DNA of 64,000 nt from Escherichia coli (lineage in GTDB: Bacteria > Pseudomonadota > Gammaproteobacteria > Enterobacterales > Enterobacteriaceae). The stretch lies in NCBI RefSeq assembly GCF_041886205.1, contig NZ_CP169029.1; one strand, given 5' to 3'. The notes beneath the pieces were generated by a model. It was not told the origin of the DNA. It searched no databases and saw only the letters and a program-made list of their open reading frames with translations. Position 1 is the first letter of the stretch. Each line of letters opens with the position of its first letter. Positions 1 to 12,883 of this stretch are shown here, piece by piece. Both the position numbers and the translations under genes were made by a program.

Positions 1-2316
1 CAGCCCGATTTTACCTGGCTTGATGCTTACGAAGAGAAGCGTTTTGAGCAGTATTTCCTGCCTTATCATTCTTTGGGCATGGTGCAAAATGCCTCCCGCG
101 ATGCGGTGATAAAACTCCAGCGTAGTGAGCGGGGGATTGAGTGGGGGCTGTATGCCATCTCTCCGTTGAACGGATACCGCCTGGCGATCCGCGAAATCGG
201 CAAATGCAACGCGTTACTTGATGATGCCGTGGCACTGATGCCTGCGACCGCCATCCAGGGCGTGTTGCACGGTATCAATCCTGAAAGGCTGACCATTGAG
301 CTCTCCGATGCCGACGGCAATATTGTACTGAGTTATCAGGAACATCAGCCGCAAGAGTTGCCGTTGCCGGACGTCGCCAAAGCGCCACTGGCAGCACAAG
401 ACATTACCAGTACAGATGAAGCCTGGTTTATCGGTCAGCATCTGGAGCAATATCATCACGCCAGCCGTTCACCGTTCGATTACTACCTGCGCGGCGTGGC
501 GCTGGATCCGCTGGATTACCGCTGTAACCTGGCGCTAGCGATGCTGGAATATAACCGTGCCGATTTCCCGCAAGCGGTGGCGTATGCCACTCAGGCTCTG
601 AAACGCGCACATGCGCTGAACAAAAATCCGCAGTGCGGACAGGCGAGTTTGATTCGCGCCAGTGCTTACGAACGTCAGGGACAATATCAACAAGCCGAAG
701 AGGATTTCTGGCGGGCGGTCTGGAGCGGCAACAGCAAAGCCGGTGGCTATTATGGCCTGGCACGACTGGCTGCGCGTAATGGTAACTTCGACGCGGGTCT
801 GGATTTTTGCCAACAAAGTCTTCGCGCCTGCCCAACCAATCAGGAAGTGCTTTGCCTGCATAACCTGCTGCTGGTGTTAAGTGGTCGTCAGGACAACGCG
901 CGTTTGCAGCGCGAGAAACTGCTGCGCGATTATCCGCTGAACGCCACTCTGTGGTGGCTGAACTGGTTCGATGGTCGTAGCGAATCAGCCCTCGCGCAGT
1001 GGCGCGGTCTGTGTCAGGGACGCGACGTTAACGCTCTGATGACCGCCGGGCAACTGATTAACTGGGGAATGCCCACCCTGGCGGCAGAGATGCTGAACGC
1101 ACTGGACTGTCAGCGCACGTTATCGCTTTATCTACAAGCCAGCTTGCTGCCGAAAGCCGAACGCGGCGAACTGGTCGCAAAAGCCATTGATGTCTTCCCG
1201 CAGTTTGTCCGTTTCCCGAATACGCTGGAAGAAGTGGCGGCGCTGGAGAGTATTGAAGAGTGCTGGTTTGCTCGCCATTTACTGGCCTGCTTCTACTACA
1301 ACAAACGTAGCTACAACAAAGCCATTGCCTTATGGCAACGTTGCGTAGAGATGTCGCCGGAGTTTGCCGACGGCTGGCGCGGGTTAGCGATCCATGCGTG
1401 GAATAAGCAACACGATTATGAGCTGGCCGCGCGTTATCTTGATAATGCTTATCAGCTTGCGCCGCAGGATGCACGTCTGCTTTTCGAACGGGATTTGCTT
1501 GATAAGTTAAGTGGAGCCACACCGGAGAAACGACTGGCGCGTCTGGAAAATAATCTGGAAATTGCGCTGAAACGCGACGACATGACCGCAGAACTGCTCA
1601 ATTTGTGGCATCTCACGGGGCAGGCAGACAAAGCGGCGGACATTCTCGCCACGCGTAAATTCCACCCGTGGGAAGGCGGGGAAGGGAAGGTCACCAGTCA
1701 GTTTATCCTCAACCAGTTATTACGCGCCTGGCAGCATCTTGATGCCAGAGAGCCGCAGCAGGCCAGCGAACTGCTTCATGCCGCGCTGTATTATCCGGAG
1801 AATTTAAGCGAAGGCCGTTTACCGGGGCAAACTGATAACGACATCTGGTTCTGGCAGGCGATATGCGCCAACGCGCAGGGCGATGAAACTGAAGCGATGC
1901 GTTGTTTACGTCTGGCGGCGACCGGCGATCGCACCATTAACATCCACAGTTATTACAACGATCAGCCGGTTGATTATCTCTTCTGGCAAGGAATGGCGCT
2001 GCGACTGCTGGGTGAACAGCAAACCGCACAGCAACTGTTTAGTGAAATGAAACAGTGGGCGCAAGAGATGGCGAAAACCAGTATTGAGGCGGATTTCTTT
2101 GCTGTTTCACAACCTGACCTGTTGTCGCTGTATGGCGATTTACAACAGCAGCATAAAGAAAAATGCCTGATGGTGGCGATGCTGGCGTCCGCGGGACTCG
2201 GGGAGGTTGCGCAATATGAATCTGCTCGCGCTGAATTGACGGCGATTAATCCGGCCTGGCCGAAAGCGGCATTATTCACCACCGTGATGCCTTTTATTTT
2301 TAACTACGTTCACTAA
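1..2316 (+). CDS. yphG: TPR-repeat protein YphG, 5'-truncated by the window edge
   Basis: Frame 1 is open from nt 1 to the stop at 2316; the track ORF 73-2316 is its C-terminal 747 aa. Product shows TPR-like repeats, and the gene sits upstream of yphF as in K-12. Confidence 0.75.
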   Translation, partial: QPDFTWLDAYEEKRFEQYFLPYHSLGMVQNASRDAVIKLQRSERGIEWGLYAISPLNGYRLAIREIGKCNALLDDAVALMPATAIQGVLHGINPERLTIELSDADGNIVLSYQEHQPQELPLPDVAKAPLAAQDITSTDEAWFIGQHLEQYHHASRSPFDYYLRGVALDPLDYRCNLALAMLEYNRADFPQAVAYATQALKRAHALNKNPQCGQASLIRASAYERQGQYQQAEEDFWRAVWSGNSKAGGYYGLARLAARNGNFDAGLDFCQQSLRACPTNQEVLCLHNLLLVLSGRQDNARLQREKLLRDYPLNATLWWLNWFDGRSESALAQWRGLCQGRDVNALMTAGQLINWGMPTLAAEMLNALDCQRTLSLYLQASLLPKAERGELVAKAIDVFPQFVRFPNTLEEVAALESIEECWFARHLLACFYYNKRSYNKAIALWQRCVEMSPEFADGWRGLAIHAWNKQHDYELAARYLDNAYQLAPQDARLLFERDLLDKLSGATPEKRLARLENNLEIALKRDDMTAELLNLWHLTGQADKAADILATRKFHPWEGGEGKVTSQFILNQLLRAWQHLDAREPQQASELLHAALYYPENLSEGRLPGQTDNDIWFWQAICANAQGDETEAMRCLRLAATGDRTINIHSYYNDQPVDYLFWQGMALRLLGEQQTAQQLFSEMKQWAQEMAKTSIEADFFAVSQPDLLSLYGDLQQQHKEKCLMVAMLASAGLGEVAQYESARAELTAINPAWPKAALFTTVMPFIFNYVH

Positions 2317-2412
2317 ACCCTATTAACTGTAATATTTGAGCGGCACGCGCTGCCGCTCATCACAAAATAATTAGAATAAGCCGTTGTTAATAAAAACCCT
2401 ACAGGAGGCACT

Positions 2413-3396
2413 ATGCCTAAAAAAATGAGAACAACCCGTAATCTATTATTAATGGCTACGCTATTAGGTAGCGCACTATTTGCCAGGGCTGCGGATAAAG
2501 AAATGACCATTGGTGCAATATACCTTGATACCCAGGGATATTACGCTGGAGTGCGTCAGGGCGTTCAGGATGCGGCAAAAGATTCTTCAGTACAGGTACA
2601 GTTAATTGAAACTAACGCCCAGGGTGATATTTCGAAAGAAAGTACCTTTGTTGATACCCTCGTGGCGCGTAATGTCGATGCCATTATTTTATCGGCAGTG
2701 TCTGAAAATGGCAGTAGCCGTACCGTTCGTCGCGCCAGTGAAGCGGGTATTCCGGTGATTTGCTACAACACCTGTATTAATCAAAAGGGTGTCGATAAAT
2801 ATGTCTCGGCGTATCTGGTCGGCGATCCACTGGAATTTGGTAAAAAACTGGGTAACGCTGCCGCCGATTATTTTATTGCCAATAAAATTGACCAGCCGAA
2901 AATTGCCGTCATCAATTGCGAAGCCTTTGAAGTTTGTGTGCAGCGACGTAAAGGATTTGAAGAAGTATTAAAATCCCGCGTTCCCGGCGCGCAAATTGTC
3001 GCTAATCAGGAAGGGACTGTTTTAGATAAAGCGATTTCCGTTGGTGAAAAACTGATTATCTCCACGCCGGATCTCAACGCCATTATGGGGGAGTCGGGCG
3101 GTGCGACACTCGGCGCGGTAAAAGCGGTACGTAATCAAAATCAGGCCGGAAAAATTGCTGTTTTCGGTTCGGATATGACAACCGAAATTGCTCAGGAGCT
3201 GGAAAACAATCAGGTGCTGAAAGCGGTAGTGGATATTTCCGGTAAGAAAATGGGCAATGCTGTTTTCGCGCAAACATTGAAGGTTATCAATAAACAAGCC
3301 GACGGTGAAAAAGTGATTCAGGTGCCAATCGATCTCTATACCAAAACGGAAGATGGTAAACAGTGGCTGGCAACGCACGTTGATGGTCTGCCCTAA
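2413..3396 (+). CDS. yphF: Periplasmic sugar-binding protein of an ABC transporter (YphF)
   Basis: 327 aa with an N-terminal signal peptide (MPKKMRTTRNLLLMATLLGSALFARA); periplasmic binding protein fold features; K-12 synteny. Confidence 0.85.
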   Translation: MPKKMRTTRNLLLMATLLGSALFARAADKEMTIGAIYLDTQGYYAGVRQGVQDAAKDSSVQVQLIETNAQGDISKESTFVDTLVARNVDAIILSAVSENGSSRTVRRASEAGIPVICYNTCINQKGVDKYVSAYLVGDPLEFGKKLGNAAADYFIANKIDQPKIAVINCEAFEVCVQRRKGFEEVLKSRVPGAQIVANQEGTVLDKAISVGEKLIISTPDLNAIMGESGGATLGAVKAVRNQNQAGKIAVFGSDMTTEIAQELENNQVLKAVVDISGKKMGNAVFAQTLKVINKQADGEKVIQVPIDLYTKTEDGKQWLATHVDGLP

Positions 3397-3418
3397 TCGC
3401 TGATTCGCAGAGGTCCCT

Positions 3419-4930
3419 ATGTTCACGGCAACAGAGGCAGTCCCGGTAGCAAAAGTGGTGGCAGGAAATAAGCGTTATCCCGGCGTCGTTGCGTTGGATA
3501 ACGTTAACTTCACGCTCAATAAAGGCGAAGTTCGTGCGCTGTTAGGCAAAAACGGCGCGGGCAAATCGACCCTCATTCGAATGCTTACCGGTAGCGAACG
3601 TCCGGATAGCGGTGATATCTGGATTGGCGAGACGCGACTGGAAGGCGACGAAGCTACGCTGACTCGCCGTGCCGCTGAACTGGGGGTACGCGCGGTTTAT
3701 CAGGAGTTAAGTCTGGTGGAAGGGCTGACGGTGGCGGAAAACCTCTGCCTCGGTCAGTGGCCCCGCCGCAACGGCATGATTGATTACCTGCAAATGGCGC
3801 AGGATGCCCAACGTTGCTTACAGGCGTTGGGCGTTGACGTTAGTCCTGAACAACTTGTTTCAACACTAAGCCCGGCGCAAAAGCAGCTGGTGGAAATTGC
3901 GCGGGTGATGAAGGGCGAGCCGCGCGTGGTCATTCTTGATGAACCTACCAGTTCGCTTGCCAGTGCGGAAGTTGAACTGGTGATCAGCGCGGTGAAAAAG
4001 ATGTCGGCACTGGGCGTGGCGGTAATTTATGTCAGCCACCGGATGGAAGAAATTCGCCGCATTGCCTCCTGTGCCACCGTTATGCGCGATGGTCAGGTGG
4101 CGGGCGATGTGATGCTCGAAAACACCTCCACGCATCATATTGTGTCGCTGATGCTCGGGCGCGATCACGTTGATATTGCGCCGGTTGCCCCTCAGGAAAT
4201 TGTGGATCAGGCCGTACTGGAAGTCCGTGCGTTACGCCATAAGCCCAAGCTGGAGGATATCAGTTTTACGCTACGTCGTGGCGAAGTGCTCGGCATTGCT
4301 GGTCTGCTGGGGGCAGGGCGCAGTGAATTGCTGAAGGCGATTGTTGGGCTGGAGGAGTATGAACAGGGCGAAATTGTTATCAACGGCGAGAAAATCACGC
4401 GCCCCGATTACGGCGACATGCTGAAACGCGGCATTGGCTATACGCCAGAAAACCGCAAAGAAGCGGGGATCATTCCCTGGTTGGGCGTTGACGAAAATAC
4501 AGTGCTGACCAATCGGCAAAAAATCAGCGCCAACGGTGTGCTGCAATGGTCCACCATCCGCCGCCTGACCGAAGAAGTGATGCAGCGGATGACGGTCAAG
4601 GCCGCCAGTAGCGAAACGCCCATCGGCACGCTTTCTGGCGGCAATCAGCAAAAAGTAGTGATCGGTCGTTGGGTCTATGCCGCCAGCCAGATTTTGTTGC
4701 TCGACGAGCCAACGCGCGGCGTCGATATCGAAGCCAAACAGCAGATTTACCGTATTGTCCGTGAGCTGGCTGCCGAAGGAAAAAGTGTGGTGTTTATCTC
4801 CAGTGAAGTGGAGGAGTTGCCGCTGGTGTGTGACCGCATCCTGTTATTACAGCACGGCACGTTCTCGCAGGAGTTTCACTCGCCGGTCAATGTGGATGAG
4901 CTGATGTCCGCCATTCTGTCTGTGCACTGA
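3419..4930 (+). CDS. yphE: ABC transporter ATP-binding protein with duplicated NBD (YphE)
   Basis: 503 aa; Walker A GKNGAGKST, ABC signature LSGGNQQKV and a second nucleotide-binding domain, as in sugar-type ABC ATPases. Confidence 0.9.
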   Translation: MFTATEAVPVAKVVAGNKRYPGVVALDNVNFTLNKGEVRALLGKNGAGKSTLIRMLTGSERPDSGDIWIGETRLEGDEATLTRRAAELGVRAVYQELSLVEGLTVAENLCLGQWPRRNGMIDYLQMAQDAQRCLQALGVDVSPEQLVSTLSPAQKQLVEIARVMKGEPRVVILDEPTSSLASAEVELVISAVKKMSALGVAVIYVSHRMEEIRRIASCATVMRDGQVAGDVMLENTSTHHIVSLMLGRDHVDIAPVAPQEIVDQAVLEVRALRHKPKLEDISFTLRRGEVLGIAGLLGAGRSELLKAIVGLEEYEQGEIVINGEKITRPDYGDMLKRGIGYTPENRKEAGIIPWLGVDENTVLTNRQKISANGVLQWSTIRRLTEEVMQRMTVKAASSETPIGTLSGGNQQKVVIGRWVYAASQILLLDEPTRGVDIEAKQQIYRIVRELAAEGKSVVFISSEVEELPLVCDRILLLQHGTFSQEFHSPVNVDELMSAILSVH

Positions 4931-4954
4931 TGAATTTTACCGAGGAACCTGAAG

Positions 4955-5953
4955 ATGTCTGCTTCGTCATTACCATTGCCGCAGGGCAAGAGCGTCTCGC
5001 TCAAACAATTTGTCAGTCGCCATATTAATGAGATCGGTTTGCTGGTGGTGATTGCCATTCTTTATCTGGTCTTCTCCCTGAACGCGCCTGGCTTTATCTC
5101 ATTGAATAACCAGATGAACGTGCTGCGCGATGCCGCCACCATTGGGATTGCCGCCTGGGCGATGACGCTGATTATTATCTCCGGTGAGATTGATGTCAGC
5201 GTTGGGCCGATGGTGGCTTTTGTCTCGGTGTGCCTGGCATTTTTGCTGCAATTTGAAGTTCCGCTGGCGGTGGCGTGCCTGCTGGTGTTGCTGTTAGGCG
5301 CGCTGATGGGAACGCTGGCCGGGGTGCTGCGCGGCGTGTTTAATGTACCAAGTTTCGTTGCCACACTGGGGCTGTGGAGCGCCCTGCGCGGAATGGGGCT
5401 GTTTATGACGAACGCACTGCCAGTGCCGATTGATGAAAACGAGGTGCTGGACTGGCTGGGCGGACAATTTCTCGGTGTGCCGGTATCCGCGCTGATCATG
5501 ATTGTGTTGTTTGCGCTGTTTGTGTTCATCAGCCGCAAAACCGCCTTCGGGCGCTCGGTTTTTGCCGTTGGCGGTAATGCTACGGCGGCGCAGTTGTGCG
5601 GCATCAACGTTCGTCGGGTGCGCATTCTTATCTTTACCCTTTCGGGATTATTAGCGGCGGTGACCGGCATTTTGTTGGCGGCGCGCCTCGGTTCTGGTAA
5701 CGCAGGTGCCGCAAACGGTCTGGAGTTTGACGTCATCGCCGCGGTCGTGGTCGGCGGTACGGCACTTTCCGGCGGTCGCGGTTCCCTGTTCGGTACATTG
5801 CTTGGTGTGCTGGTGATTACGCTAATCGGTAACGGTCTGGTGCTGCTCGGTATTAACTCCTTTTTCCAGCAGGTGGTACGCGGCGTCATCATCGTGGTGG
5901 CGGTGCTGGCGAATATCTTGCTGACCCAGCGAAGCAGTAAAGCGAAACGCTAA
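4955..5953 (+). CDS. yphD: ABC transporter permease (YphD)
   Basis: 332 aa, highly hydrophobic multi-pass membrane protein immediately downstream of the ATPase. Confidence 0.85.
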   Translation: MSASSLPLPQGKSVSLKQFVSRHINEIGLLVVIAILYLVFSLNAPGFISLNNQMNVLRDAATIGIAAWAMTLIIISGEIDVSVGPMVAFVSVCLAFLLQFEVPLAVACLLVLLLGALMGTLAGVLRGVFNVPSFVATLGLWSALRGMGLFMTNALPVPIDENEVLDWLGGQFLGVPVSALIMIVLFALFVFISRKTAFGRSVFAVGGNATAAQLCGINVRRVRILIFTLSGLLAAVTGILLAARLGSGNAGAANGLEFDVIAAVVVGGTALSGGRGSLFGTLLGVLVITLIGNGLVLLGINSFFQQVVRGVIIVVAVLANILLTQRSSKAKR

Positions 5954-6018
5954 ACCTTAACGCCCCTGGCGCGGGTGCGGCAGGGATGAAAATTAATCGT
6001 ATTGTTAATGAGGGATTT

Positions 6019-7080
6019 ATGAAAACGATGCTGGCAGCTTATTTACCAGGAAATTCGACCGTCGATCTGCGGGAAGTTGCGGTGCCGACGCCGGGGATTA
6101 ACCAGGTACTGATCAAAATGAAATCCTCCGGGATTTGCGGAAGCGATGTCCACTATATCTATCATCAACACCGTGCCACAGCGGCGGCACCCGATAAACC
6201 GTTATACCAGGGCTTTATCAACGGTCATGAACCGTGCGGGCAGATTGTGGCGATGGGGCAAGGCTGCCGCCATTTTAAAGAGGGCGACCGCGTGCTGGTG
6301 TATCACATTTCTGGCTGTGGTTTTTGCCCGAACTGCCGCCGCGGCTTTCCTATCTCTTGTACTGGCAAAGGAAAAGCGGCTTACGGCTGGCAGCGTGACG
6401 GCGGTCATGCCGAATATCTGCTGGCGGAAGAAAAAGATCTGATCCTCCTGCCGGATGCGCTGAGCTACGAAGATGGTGCGTTTATCAGTTGCGGCGTTGG
6501 CACGGCCTATGAAGGGATTTTGCGCGGCGAAGTTTCCGGCAGCGATAACGTGCTGGTGGTCGGTCTGGGGCCGGTCGGCATGATGGCGATGATGCTGGCG
6601 AAAGGTCGCGGTGCAAAACGGATCATCGGCGTTGATATGCTGCCGGAACGTCTGGCGATGGCAAAACAGTTAGGGGTGATGGATCACGGCTATTTAGCAA
6701 CCACCGAAGGTCTGCCGCAGATTATCGCCGAACTCACCCACGGTGGCGCGGATGTTGCGCTCGATTGTTCTGGTAATGCCGCAGGTCGCTTGCTGGCACT
6801 GCAATCCACCGCTGACTGGGGACGGGTGGTTTACATTGGTGAAACCGGAAAAGTGGAATTCGAGGTCAGCGCCGATCTGATGCACCATCAACGGCGGATT
6901 ATCGGCTCCTGGGTGACCAGTCTGTTCCATATGGAAAAATGCGCCCATGATCTGACGGACTGGAAACTGTGGCCGCGTAACGCCATTACCCATCGCTTCA
7001 CGCTGGAACAGGCTGGAGATGCCTATGCGCTGATGGCGAGCGGCAAATGCGGGAAAGTTGTGATTAACTTCCCGGATTAA
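6019..7080 (+). CDS. yphC: Zn-dependent alcohol/polyol dehydrogenase family protein (YphC)
   Basis: MDR-family motifs (GICGSDVH, Cys-rich structural Zn site CGFCPNCRRG, GxGxxG Rossmann motif). Start moved to the internal ATG at 6019 (GAGGG RBS about 7 nt upstream), giving 353 aa; the track ORF starts 33 nt earlier. Confidence 0.8.
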   Translation: MKTMLAAYLPGNSTVDLREVAVPTPGINQVLIKMKSSGICGSDVHYIYHQHRATAAAPDKPLYQGFINGHEPCGQIVAMGQGCRHFKEGDRVLVYHISGCGFCPNCRRGFPISCTGKGKAAYGWQRDGGHAEYLLAEEKDLILLPDALSYEDGAFISCGVGTAYEGILRGEVSGSDNVLVVGLGPVGMMAMMLAKGRGAKRIIGVDMLPERLAMAKQLGVMDHGYLATTEGLPQIIAELTHGGADVALDCSGNAAGRLLALQSTADWGRVVYIGETGKVEFEVSADLMHHQRRIIGSWVTSLFHMEKCAHDLTDWKLWPRNAITHRFTLEQAGDAYALMASGKCGKVVINFPD

Positions 7081-7091
7081 GGAGTTAGCGG

Positions 7092-7964
7092 ATGACCATC
7101 TATACCTTATCCCACGGGTCGCTAAAGCTGGACGTTTCTGACCAGGGCGGCGTAATCGAAGGCTTCTGGCGCGATACGACGCCGCTCTTACGTCCTGGTA
7201 AAAAAAGCGGTGTGGCAACCGATGCCTCCTGTTTTCCGCTGGTGCCATTTGCAAACCGGGTGAGCGGCAACCGTTTTGTCTGGCAGGGGCGTGAGTATCA
7301 ACTGCAACCGAATGTTGAGTGGGATGCGCACTATCTACACGGCGATGGCTGGCTGGGCGAGTGGCAATGTGTCTCGCACAGCGATGATAGTTTGTGTCTG
7401 GTGTATGAACATCGCAGCGGTGTCTATCACTATCGGGTAAGTCAGGCGTTTCATTTAACGGCGGATACGCTGACGGTGACGCTCTCTGTCACCAATCAAG
7501 GGGCAGAGACGCTGCCATTTGGTACCGGCTGGCATCCTTATTTTCCGTTGTCACCACAAACGCGGATTCAGGCGCAGGCGAGCGGTTACTGGCTGGAACG
7601 GGAGCAGTGGCTGGCGGGTGAGTTTTGCGAGCAGCTACCGCAGGAACTGGATTTTAACCAGCTCGCGCCGTTGCCGCGCCAGTGGGTGAACAATGGTTTT
7701 GCCGGATGGAATGGTCAGGCCCGCATCGAGCAGCCGCAGGAAGGTTATGCCATCATCATGGAAACGACGCCACCTGCACCGTGTTATTTCATCTTTGTTT
7801 CCGACCCTGCGTTTGATAAAGGATATGCGTTTGATTTCTTCTGTCTGGAACCGATGAGCCATGCGCCGGATGATCATCATCGCCCGGAAGGGGGTGATCT
7901 CATTGCGCTAGCACCAGGGGAATCAACAACTTCAGAGATGTCGTTGCGGGTAGAGTGGCTGTAA
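7092..7964 (+). CDS. yphB: Aldose 1-epimerase (mutarotase)-like protein (YphB)
   Basis: 290 aa; GGAG RBS upstream; identified by K-12 order and length. Confidence 0.75.
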   Translation: MTIYTLSHGSLKLDVSDQGGVIEGFWRDTTPLLRPGKKSGVATDASCFPLVPFANRVSGNRFVWQGREYQLQPNVEWDAHYLHGDGWLGEWQCVSHSDDSLCLVYEHRSGVYHYRVSQAFHLTADTLTVTLSVTNQGAETLPFGTGWHPYFPLSPQTRIQAQASGYWLEREQWLAGEFCEQLPQELDFNQLAPLPRQWVNNGFAGWNGQARIEQPQEGYAIIMETTPPAPCYFIFVSDPAFDKGYAFDFFCLEPMSHAPDDHHRPEGGDLIALAPGESTTSEMSLRVEWL

Positions 7965-7973
7965 TTTATTAAA

Positions 7974-8004
7974 TGCCGGATAAGGCGTTCACGCCGCATC
8001 CGGC
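7974..8004. repeat. REP-type palindromic element
   Basis: gccggataaggcgttcacgccgcatccggc, the classic GCCGGATAAGGCG / CGCATCCGGC REP consensus, between convergent yphB and yphA. Confidence 0.6.
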
Positions 8005-8011
8005 ATCTTTC

Positions 8012-8434
8012 CTAACGCCGATCGAGAGAAATTGCCCCCGGCCCGGTAATTGCCAATAGCAAGAACGCGCCAGCGATACTGACATTCTTCCAGAAATTAA
8101 TCATATTTGGCCCAACCGCATCGCCGGTCATATCCCAGTAATGGTGACCAATCACCGCCGTACCCAGCGTGTAGAAAATAAACAGCACCGCCAGCGGACG
8201 GGTGAAAAAGCCAAGCACGATTAATATCGCGGCGGGCACTTCCATAACTACCGCAATAATCGCTGCCAGCATCGGCATTGGCGCGCCCAACGAGGCCATA
8301 TATTGGACCGTACCGTCAAAGCCCATCATTTTGGGAAAACCAAAAATAATGAAAATTAAGACCACGGCGATACGGGCAATTAATAACAAAACGGGGCGGG
8401 CAGCTCCAAAATCAAAATAACGTAGTGTGTTCAT
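8012..8434 (-). CDS. yphA: DoxX-family inner-membrane protein (YphA)
   Basis: Hydrophobic ~140-aa product. Start set at the internal Met (MNTLRYFDF) with an AAGGGA RBS; the track ORF extends 15 codons further upstream. Confidence 0.7.
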
Positions 8435-8530
8435 AACCAATCCCTTTGCAAGATAATGTGATTTAAACGTAATACACACTCTTGCACCTCGCCACGCCCC
8501 AGGCGTTGAGATATTCGCTAATTATCCTGG

Positions 8531-9742
<1,212 letters not shown>

Positions 9743-10555
9743 TTAAAGATCCAGCCCAGCCGCTACGTGGCGAATGCCGCGAATCGCTAAACCCGCATCA
9801 GCGTTGATCATCACACCGCTTAATGCGCGATTATTGCGCCGCGATGCCAACATCACATACGGCCCCGTAAAATCCGCCGGTTGCGGGAAAAATTGCAGCG
9901 GTAAAATGGCGGCAATTTTCTCCGGCGTCAGAGACTGCATTATCGAGGTTTCACTTTGCCCGAGCGCCTGTGGGCCGCGCAGGTCGCTGGCCATACCACA
10001 CGGGCCGACGCCATTCACCCGCACTTTCGGTGCCAGTTCATAAGCCAGTTGGCGAATAAGTCCGGTTGCGGCATGTTTACTGGCGGTGTACAGCGGGCCA
10101 CCGCCGCCAGGATACCAGGCGGCATTTGACAGTGTGAAAATCATGCTGCCTTCACTGGCGATTAACGCCGGAGCGCAGGCTTTTGCGCCCAGCAGGTAAC
10201 CGAGAACATTGACGTTAAACAGCTCGTGGAAGCCGGTTTCGAGCGTCTCTGCGGGAGTATTAACCAGTGAGGCATTGTGATCCCAGATGCCTGCATTGCC
10301 GATAAAACAATCCAGCTTGCCGGAACGAGTCAGGATCTGATCGACCGCGCGTTGATAATCGGCATAACAGGTCACGTTACCTTCCACCGCCAGAATATGT
10401 TCGCCAAATCGCTGACGCAGACTGGCGACTTTTGCCGCCGACAGTTCCAGCGTGGCAACCTGCGCGCCTTCTTCGATAAATCGCTCGACCAGCGCCAGCC
10501 CTAATCCCGATCCGCCGCCGGTAATAAAAATGGACTCGTTATGCAGATCGCTCAT
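9743..10555 (-). CDS. hcaB: cis-dihydrodiol dehydrogenase, SDR family (HcaB)
   Basis: 270 aa; SDR motif ITGGGSGLG near the N-terminus and YxxxK active site (YTASKHA). Confidence 0.9.
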
Positions 10556-10871
10556 GGCTGCGCCTCCGGTAAGTCGATGAAAATGTCACCACCTTCAACG
10601 TGTACTGGATAAGTGGTGAGCGGATCGGTGGCGGGCAGGCATAACGCTTTCCCCGTTTTCAGGCAAAAACTGGCGGCGTGTAGCGGGCACTCCACCGTGG
10701 CGTCATCTTCCAGATACCCTTCTGACATCGACGCATTACCATGGCTGCAACGATCGTTAATGGCATAAAACTCGCCGCCAACGTTGAACAGGGCGATGAC
10801 GGGCGAGGTATCGATCCGGAGAGCCTCACCCTCCGGCACATCCGCAACGGGACACGCATAAATTCGATTCA

Positions 10872-10872
<1 letters not shown>
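10552..10872 (-). CDS. hcaC: Rieske [2Fe-2S] ferredoxin subunit (HcaC)
   Basis: 106 aa with Rieske ligands CSH…CPLH; 4-nt overlap with hcaB. Confidence 0.9.

Positions 10873-12883
<2,011 letters not shown>

Follow-up and report, generated by a model that had tools for sequence, protein, structure and literature searches.

What is the substrate of the yph locus of Escherichia coli, and what do its genes do with it? The locus lies at positions 1 to 8011 of the window, a stretch of 64,000 nucleotides (RefSeq assembly GCF_041886205.1, contig NZ_CP169029.1) which opens with the 3' two-thirds of yphG, followed by yphF, yphE, yphD, yphC and yphB. A first-pass annotation described a large tetratricopeptide repeat (TPR) protein (YphG), an orphan ATP-binding cassette (ABC) transporter (YphF, YphE and YphD), a medium-chain dehydrogenase/reductase (MDR; YphC) and an aldose-epimerase-like protein (YphB), together forming an uncharacterised cluster of unassigned substrate. 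The cluster is still uncharacterised: no protein of the locus reached an NCBIfam equivalog cut-off (June 2026 release), and a literature search turned up no published substrate or functional study for any yph gene. Literature matches were mostly namesakes (Bacillus subtilis YphC, a GTPase, and the yphC of Helicobacter pylori multilocus sequence typing), and yphG was otherwise encountered only as a Klebsiella PCR marker. Six genes under selection, which make up roughly 8 kb of core genome in E. coli, are without an assigned substrate. It is proposed here, with a probability put at roughly 0.35, that the yph operon uses a D-galacto-configured monosaccharide, whose anomers YphB would interconvert and which YphC would oxidise towards D-galactonate, feeding the dgo pathway; D-galactose or a close analogue (D-fucose, L-arabinose or a small galactoside) are the candidate substrates covered by the same estimate. 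If true, this would give the known D-galactonate pathway of E. coli a candidate upstream source and would close a gap in the map of its transport and metabolism.

Two independent lines of synteny point to a galacto-configured substrate, the first being the linkage of yphFEDCB to galactonate dehydratase (DgoD) and the second the presence of galactosidases in loci that carry relatives of YphG. Orthologues of yphFEDCB adjoin a DgoD gene in six of the eight non-enteric contexts (Aquitalea, Rhizobium, Agrobacterium, Faunimonas, Acidisoma and Vibrio). All six linked dehydratases pass the NCBIfam galactonate-dehydratase equivalog (339-729 bits, cut-off 311); five are 53-71% identical to E. coli DgoD over the full length, and the one from Acidisoma is 40% identical. 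In Aquitalea the unit adjoins DgoD (649 bits, 71% identity to E. coli), DgoA (285 bits against 207, 56% identity), a short-chain dehydrogenase/reductase (SDR) and an SGL-type lactonase. The operon of Rhizobium, Agrobacterium and Faunimonas consists of a GntR gene, yphF-yphE-yphD, a YphB-like gene, a GMC oxidoreductase, DgoD (approximately 726-729 bits, 64-65% identity to E. coli DgoD) and an SDR, while that of Acidisoma holds GntR, yphF-yphE-yphD, YphC (66% identical), YphB, a DgoD-like dehydratase (339 bits) and an SDR. The cluster of Vibrio nigripulchritudo has DgoD (577 bits) transcribed divergently from GntR-yphF-yphE-yphD-yphC-yphB. The regulators of the DgoD-linked clusters belong to GntR/FCD and are 29-36% identical to DgoR. 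The remaining two of the eight contexts lack DgoD; one of these, a metagenome contig (L089), carries an AraC gene, then a DUF5107-TPR gene (the YphG type) and yphF-yphE-yphD-yphC-yphB, the gene order of E. coli under a different regulator.

The second line of evidence is taken from the relatives of YphG, which combine TPR repeats with an N-terminal DUF5107 domain. The open reading frames (ORFs) of 82 genome loci were clustered, and a family was counted as a partner of the DUF5107-TPR gene when found within three genes of it. A XylE-like major facilitator superfamily (MFS) sugar porter (393 bits to the XylE model, cut-off 608) occurred in 55 of the 82 loci, an AraC-family regulator in 44 and a GH2_20 enzyme in 23, the last of these scoring 1176 bits on the NCBIfam BT4151 exo-beta-1,4-galactosidase model and being nearly identical in family to PDB 8U01 (for the GH2_20 beta-galactosidase, see PMC12243196). 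The AraC-family regulators are nearest to E. coli AraC over their full length (107-114 bits, cut-off 208). A second, normal-sized Aldose_epim protein, of GalM, Firmicute or YphB type, is found in these loci, and looser partners include GH35, GH36, GH97, GH95, GH30, sulfatases and a GDSL esterase; beta- or alpha-galactosidases are among the neighbours. Signal-peptide-like N-termini were seen on the glycosidases and on none of the DUF5107-TPR proteins or epimerases. The DUF5107-TPR protein is therefore best read as a cytoplasmic partner of the inner-membrane porter, and the exported enzymes of these loci mostly include galactosidases.

From this synteny the following scheme can be drawn. YphF would bind the sugar in the periplasm and YphE/YphD would import it, YphB would equilibrate its anomers and YphC would oxidise it via the lactone to the acid, C1 being the most likely site of oxidation. 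The D-galactonate so formed would be consumed by the separate dgoRKADT operon, and sugars of this class would also be acted on by YphG in the cytoplasm. The De Ley-Doudoroff pathway for D-galactose (galactose 1-dehydrogenase, lactonase, DgoD, DgoK and DgoA), with dgoRKADT of E. coli, is the nearest known system: the orthologous units have DgoD as a neighbour, joined in Aquitalea by DgoA and a lactonase, with DgoR-related GntR/FCD regulators, and a transporter, a mutarotase and a dehydrogenase are what would be expected of its upper part. There are also differences. The dehydrogenase of the yph unit is a Zn MDR (or a GMC enzyme) and not of the known galactose 1-dehydrogenase types, and a further conserved SDR is present. 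Linkage is a property of the orthologous clusters and not of the E. coli locus itself, where no lactonase is linked and where dgoRKADT is annotated at a distant locus (a dgoD match was obtained in at least 5021 of 5426 genomes). Taken with the DgoD of other bacteria, yphFEDCB resembles the upper half of a De Ley-Doudoroff-type route whose dehydrogenase is unusual and to which an SDR has been added. The transporter that had been called an orphan is part of a five-gene unit whose orthologues are repeatedly linked to D-galactonate genes, and by synteny the class of its substrate can be narrowed to galactose-like sugars.

YphF, YphE and YphD show all the sequence features that mark CUT2 monosaccharide ABC importers, and the roles first given to them (binding protein, ATPase with two nucleotide-binding domains, and permease) are borne out by Pfam, Walker motifs and NCBIfam. 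YphF contains a Peripla_BP_4 domain (PF13407, 116 bits) and a signal-peptide-like N-terminus, MPKKMRTTRNLLLMATLLGSALFARA|ADK, in which the predicted export signal ends at ARA|ADK. Its top NCBIfam matches (AlsB, MglB, LsrB and RbsB) are all far under cut-off, and its best PDB match is 5hsg (1e-24), for which the depositors name no ligand; orthologues with 57-69% identity were identified in Serratia, Aquitalea and rhizobia. YphE possesses two ABC_tran domains (200 bits), each with its Walker A (GKNGAGKST at residue 43, GLLGAGRSE at 295) and Walker B motif (ILDEPT at 172, LLDEPT at 427), and scores 416-456 bits against AraG, XylG, AlsA and MglA, under the equivalog cut-offs. YphD is a BPD_transp_2 protein (PF02653, 126 bits), RbsC and AraH being nearest and below cut-off. 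The three-part architecture is common to the E. coli CUT2 importers RbsABC, AraFGH, XylFGH, MglBAC, AlsBAC and YtfQRT-YjfF, whereas the scores fall short of theirs (e.g. 456 bits against 689 for AraG and 227 against 398 for RbsC), and YphF is only distantly related to any binding protein whose ligand is known. No equivalence to a transporter of known substrate was obtained for YphF, YphE or YphD at the NCBIfam equivalog cut-offs, and the importer adds a new member to the CUT2 family. Sequence searches of PDB with YphF, YphC and the linked SDR returned generic relatives and no clue to a ligand.

The assignment of YphC to the MDR family and of YphB to the aldose epimerases also stands on Pfam, motifs and, for YphB, a crystal structure (PDB 3NRE). 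Domains (ADH_N, PF08240, and ADH_zinc_N, PF00107; GroES-like and Rossmann) and motifs place YphC among the Zn-dependent MDR dehydrogenases, and its fingerprint, which includes a GxGxxG motif, is of the NAD type (GLGPVG at 182, GVD at 204). Motifs for the catalytic Zn with its Cys, His and Glu ligands (GICGSD at 38 and GHEPCG at 69) and a four-Cys site for the structural Zn (CGFCPNCRRGFPISC at 100) were located. The protein reached none of the MDR subfamilies of defined reaction (Tdh, IolM, GatD, IdnD, AdhP and others), its best NCBIfam scores being 171 bits for Tdh (cut-off 380) and 169 for IolM (cut-off 450). Its start is ambiguous, as the RefSeq ATG at 5986 gives 364 aa and an alternative start (MKTML) at 6019 gives 353 aa; the latter is favoured because orthologues in Serratia, Aquitalea, Acidisoma, Vibrio and others have 348-354 aa, aligned from MKTML. 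YphB matches Aldose_epim (PF01263) with 186 bits (gathering threshold 27) and is just 16-20% identical to GalM-type proteins. It retains three catalytic residues, Arg, His and Glu, which do not vary in an alignment with these (FANRV at 53, GWHPYF at 146 and CLEPM at 251), and is a divergent member of the aldose 1-epimerase family and a probable mutarotase.

Several points weigh against the galacto-sugar scheme. The evidence for the substrate is synteny entirely. The closest relatives of YphC are secondary-alcohol dehydrogenases (Tdh and IolM at approximately 1e-50, and the xylitol dehydrogenase 7y9p), and in rhizobia a GMC oxidoreductase takes its place. An SDR passing NCBIfam PRK07063 ('SDR family oxidoreductase'; 407-420 bits against 306, three scored) is conserved in five of the six DgoD-linked clusters (not in Vibrio), where it lies next to DgoD or one gene from it; these clusters come from three bacterial orders (Table 1). 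Of three scored against the SDR 'glucose 1-dehydrogenase' subfamily (cut-off 215), two reach the cut-off (225 and 230 bits) and that of Agrobacterium has 201. This SDR could be key to the pathway and could be the real C1 dehydrogenase, leaving YphC in a different role. In addition, the yph locus of E. coli contains neither a lactonase nor a dehydratase, and galK mutants of E. coli K-12 are classically unable to grow on galactose; this leaves two options, as the route may stay silent, under YphH, in laboratory culture, or the true substrate may be a sugar other than D-galactose. The relatives of YphC, the SDR, the GMC replacement and the galK phenotype are the reasons for setting the estimate at the figure given above.

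The same observations allow YphC to be regarded as a polyol or secondary-alcohol dehydrogenase. An imported polyol or rare sugar would then be converted to galactose by YphC (GMC in rhizobia) and YphB, and the galactose would be processed further by the Leloir enzymes in E. coli and by an SDR-DgoD-DgoA route in Aquitalea and rhizobia. This account is doubtful but draws on several findings: the best characterised relatives of YphC (Tdh, IolM, GatD and xylitol dehydrogenase) oxidise secondary alcohols, CUT2 binding proteins are known to bind polyols, and the additional SDR could be a galactose 1-dehydrogenase. It would also explain the lack of DgoD and SDR from the E. coli cluster, since the Leloir pathway of this species would make them dispensable there. 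Nevertheless, an aldose 1-epimerase beside a dehydrogenase is the classic arrangement for anomer-specific oxidation at C1, no polyol-specific kinase or isomerase was linked in any of the contexts examined, and YphC has a weak match to Pfam Glu_dehyd_C.

A further alternative, considered unlikely, keeps the oxidation at C1 and changes the sugar, the substrate being a C6-modified D-galactose (D-fucose, or a sulfo- or deoxy-analogue) degraded without phosphorylation. YphB would serve as mutarotase, YphC or the GMC enzyme as 1-dehydrogenase, the DgoD-like protein as dehydratase and the SDR as a 2-keto-3-deoxy-acid dehydrogenase, giving each oxidoreductase a defined role and accounting for the constant pair of DgoD and SDR without a kinase in rhizobia and Acidisoma. 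Such a scheme mirrors the known oxidative routes for L-fucose and L-rhamnose, the former of which follows the same logic with a mutarotase and a 1-dehydrogenase. The AraC-like regulators of the DUF5107 loci would fit as well, since AraC binds L-arabinose and D-fucose. In the sulfofucose pathway, moreover, a dehydratase of the DgoD family acts on 6-sulfo-galactonate (bioRxiv 10.1101/2023.08.01.551581). On the other hand, the linked dehydratases are near bona fide E. coli DgoD (53-71% identity), Aquitalea carries a phospho-dependent DgoA-type aldolase, and E. coli K-12 is not known to use D-fucose for growth. The oxidative L-fucose/L-rhamnose and sulfofucose Entner-Doudoroff-type pathways share a mutarotase, a 1-dehydrogenase, (a lactonase), an enolase-superfamily dehydratase, an SDR and an ABC importer with the clusters described here, but the enzyme families of the first step differ, the dehydratase in these clusters is a close DgoD orthologue, and no hydrolase or HpcH-type aldolase is linked to them.

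YphG had been described as a large TPR protein without an assigned function. TPR repeats are indeed present, but the window opens about 322 codons into the gene (window position 1 is position 8001 of the E. coli locus L001, in which yphG starts at 7035), and therefore only the TPR part was visible and the N-terminal DUF5107 domain, which has a mutarotase fold, lay beyond the window edge. In the full-length protein (1093 aa), DUF5107 (PF17128) spans residues 39-324 (189 bits against 24.4) and is followed by the repeats. The N-terminal domain (residues 1-345, encoded upstream of the window start) is structurally similar to aldose 1-epimerases and has the galactose-mutarotase fold; profile-profile alignment (hhalign) of DUF5107 with GalM/YphB-type epimerases gave nothing significant. 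The fold of YphG is a known one; nothing on the function of YphG or DUF5107 was found in the literature, DUF5107 appearing once, in a list of unknowns (PMC8163842).

Judged by sequence identity, the N-terminal domain is the most conserved part of the locus. Compared with 58 homologues (Bacteroidota, Firmicutes and others), residues 1-345 average 66% identity, the linker 24% and the TPR region 28%; in residues 1-345, 124 columns do not vary among 78 sequences. H122, H123, R124, D214, H215 and E313 are among the invariant residues. H122, H123, H215 and E313 have a spacing roughly like that of the catalytic His/His/Asp/Glu set of GalM and might correspond to it; in the model, the conserved loops are the parts of low confidence. 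From this extreme and uneven conservation we infer that the domain is an enzyme domain and not a sensor. A non-enzymatic role, in which a mutarotase-fold sensor on a TPR platform modulates the transporter or the regulator, appears improbable. TPR arrays usually mediate protein-protein contacts, YphG has no cofactor-binding domain in Pfam and hhalign provides no sequence link to catalytic mutarotases, all of which would suit a sensor or scaffold; however, the contrast between the N-terminal domain (124 of 345 columns invariant across phyla) and the TPR region is typical of a catalytic domain, the conserved His, Asp and Glu residues are clustered, the adjacent AraC-type regulators have a sugar-binding domain of their own, and yphG is co-transcribed with metabolic genes.

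YphG differs from the GalM/aldose 1-epimerase family (PF01263) in showing no detectable sequence similarity to it and in its size (approximately 1100 aa, of which some 630 aa are TPR repeats, preceded by a beta-sandwich linker). It occurs nearly always alongside a separate, normal-sized epimerase, and is therefore probably not redundant with one. BDI_1685 of Parabacteroides distasonis (PDB 5CD6), a structural-genomics 'TPR-domain containing protein', has 580 aa, is 21% identical to YphG and belongs to a different subfamily; no publication or function for it turned up in the literature search. A profile search of 1.84 billion representatives returned 1629 clusters at E <= 1e-30, the top scorers being mostly about 1100 aa long. 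Tentatively, YphG may be the founder of a new family of cytoplasmic sugar-converting enzymes and may form the functional core of the locus instead of the ABC transporter; with the same reserve, its chemistry beyond anomer exchange might be hydrolysis of small galactosides, ring-form or aldose-ketose isomerisation, or epimerisation. If so, YphG would supply a missing step for galactose-type sugars across Bacteroidota, Firmicutes and Proteobacteria. With its high identity across phyla and about 1600 cluster representatives, and its presence in polysaccharide-utilisation loci of gut and soil Bacteroidota, DUF5107 is a widespread unknown of sugar metabolism, for which E. coli offers easy genetics to solve the function. 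Three secreted families (approximately 750, 465 and 475 aa) also recur in the DUF5107 polysaccharide-utilisation loci of Bacteroidota; they have lipoprotein- or signal-like N-termini and no Pfam or NCBIfam match (Table 1).

The distribution of these genes suggests that the locus was assembled from two parts. In Enterobacterales, Aeromonas and Photobacterium, yphH, encoding a ROK regulator, is divergent from yphG, which is followed by a porter and an epimerase. Nearly all enteric loci without ABC genes carry an MFS porter. E. coli YphB is 28-36% identical to the epimerases of these loci (with the exception of Rahnella, 51%) and 45-56% identical to those of ABC modules in other classes. As YphB is nearer to the latter, the unit that joined yphH-yphG would have comprised all five genes yphFEDCB, and an insertion of yphFEDC between yphG and an ancestral yphB is ruled out by the same identities. 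We infer from this that yphH-yphG is the older core, and that in Escherichia yphFEDCB displaced an ancestral pair of porter and epimerase; the porter is kept beside yphFEDCB in Serratia, Budvicia and some Enterobacter-like genomes. Both types of module bring a YphB-family epimerase, and DUF5107 is joined to yphFEDCB under two different regulators, which argues that the sugars handled by the two modules are identical or close relatives. The complete unit of Aquitalea, a betaproteobacterium, has 69% (YphF), 62% (YphE), 72% (YphD), 84% (YphC; 83.6%) and 56% (YphB) identity to that of E. coli, and in rhizobia YphF has 58% and YphB 45%. The YphC and YphF identities for Aquitalea sp. are far above expectation for the taxonomic distance, which suggests a fairly recent horizontal transfer of the five-gene unit.

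In E. coli the six yph genes are under strong purifying selection and the locus is clearly maintained. The yph region (8 kb) was covered to at least 80% in 5370 of 5426 E. coli genomes and belongs to the core genome; window positions 1-12000 were matched in 5424 of the 5426 complete genomes, with 100% identity in strains 6EVA and LHM10-1, the RefSeq labels beneath the match being yphG, F, E, D, C, B, yphA and hca genes. At the same coverage the 12-kb query was found in just 4321 genomes because the neighbouring hca genes vary. When E. coli is compared with E. albertii, dN/dS comes to 0.073 for the yphG part, 0.051 for yphF, 0.023 for yphE, 0.024 for yphD, 0.010 for yphC and 0.063 for yphB. That the E. 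coli locus is a decaying remnant with no current function, its porter lost and downstream enzymes lacking, as the absence of the relatives' MFS porter from E. coli and E. albertii and sporadic damage (a yphD frameshift in LHM10-1, the gene being intact in the window, and an IS3 insertion in BA92) could suggest, is very improbable and largely refuted by this selection (0.01-0.07 in every gene), by the presence in nearly all genomes and by proteomics in which YphF was detected and induced (PMC8753852). In that work YphF rose approximately 3- to 4.6-fold on levoglucosan versus fructose, alongside XylF, MalE, YtfQ and MglA (PMC8753852), possibly as part of a general catabolite derepression.

Table 1. 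Positions of yph genes, associated elements and related genes (plain numbers, window; numbers after an L handle, the genome locus of that handle)
Feature	Position	Strand	Remarks
yphG, 3' part (codons ~323-1093)	1-2316	+	Open frame; short beta-sandwich linker and TPR region
yphF	2413-3396	+	Periplasmic substrate-binding protein, CUT2-type ABC importer
yphE	3419-4930	+	Fused ATPase, two nucleotide-binding domains
yphD	4955-5953	+	Single membrane permease, BPD_transp_2
yphC	5986/6019-7080	+	Zn-dependent MDR dehydrogenase, NAD-type fingerprint
yphB	7092-7964	+	Aldose-1-epimerase family, probable mutarotase
yphA	8012-8434	-	DoxX family; just past the end of the locus, convergent with yphB
GC-rich 9-bp hairpin	2337-2359	+	yphG-yphF spacer; no U-run after it
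TTCACTAAAC, copy 1	2037-2046	-	
TTCACTAAAC, copy 2	2309-2318	+	
TTCACTAAAC, copy 3	28736-28745	-	
23-bp palindrome TTCACTAAAC-CTT-GTTTAGTTAA	L001:6919-6941		Between yphH and yphG, outside the window; candidate operator
PRK07063 SDR gene	L086:16309-17088		
PRK07063 SDR gene	L087:16330-17109		
PRK07063 SDR gene	L088:16348-17151		
PRK07063 SDR gene	L090:11612-12391		
PRK07063 SDR gene	L091:13151-13927		
yphFEDCB unit, Aquitalea sp.	L088:9001-14534		
Secreted family, ~750 aa	L038:6320-8575		
Secreted family, ~465 aa	L026:18602-19999		
Secreted family, ~475 aa	L079:157-1584		

The regulator gene yphH is located upstream of yphG, outside the window, and is transcribed divergently. YphH possesses a ROK domain (PF00480, 114 bits) and an N-terminal helix-turn-helix; it is NagC-/Mlc-like, far below cut-off, and has been named 'a third uncharacterized ROK repressor' (PMC4288165). 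The palindrome between the two genes is a candidate operator for YphH. Its core, (C/T)TAAAC-N3-GTTTA(G/C), is kept at the same distance from yphG, about 100 nt upstream, in E. coli, E. albertii, three Enterobacter-like genomes, Serratia and Photobacterium sanguinicancri (similar sites approximately 95-105 nt upstream in loci L005-L008, L024 and L085). One arm of the palindrome, the 10-mer TTCACTAAAC, occurs three times in the window against 0.09 expected, two of the copies flanking the 3' end of yphG. These are not claimed as extra operator half-sites, as two are in coding sequence, one overlaps the stop codon of yphG and none is palindromic; the excess is possibly due to chance.

The spacers between the six yph genes measure 96, 22, 24, 65 and 11 nt from yphG to yphB. 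The hairpin in the first of these may act as a weak terminator or serve to stabilise the RNA; the predicted fold of 2300-2415 has a minimum free energy of -21.3 kcal/mol (z -1.6), which is not significant alone. No Rfam family was found in 1-8600, and a scan for promoter- and terminator-like sites gave no excess over shuffled sequence (9 against 6.7 and 16 against 10.9). The G+C content of yphF (0.458) is below that of its operon neighbours (0.545-0.563) and the window mean (0.523).

Downstream of the locus, the hca (phenylpropionate dioxygenase) region, from 8531 to about 15000, varies far more among E. coli genomes than the yph genes do. In Enterobacter-like and Cedecea genomes yphA is found at the opposite flank of the cluster, with yphH on one side of it and glyA, or a different sugar ABC cluster, on the other; the gene moves independently of the yph cluster and is probably not part of it. 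Several genomes of Enterobacter, Cedecea and Citrobacter, but not E. coli, have a second sugar ABC system next to yph, either upstream or downstream of yphH-yphG (binding protein, ATPase, one or two permeases, FGGY kinase and a protein of about 200 aa; loci L006, L012, L017, L019 and L023).

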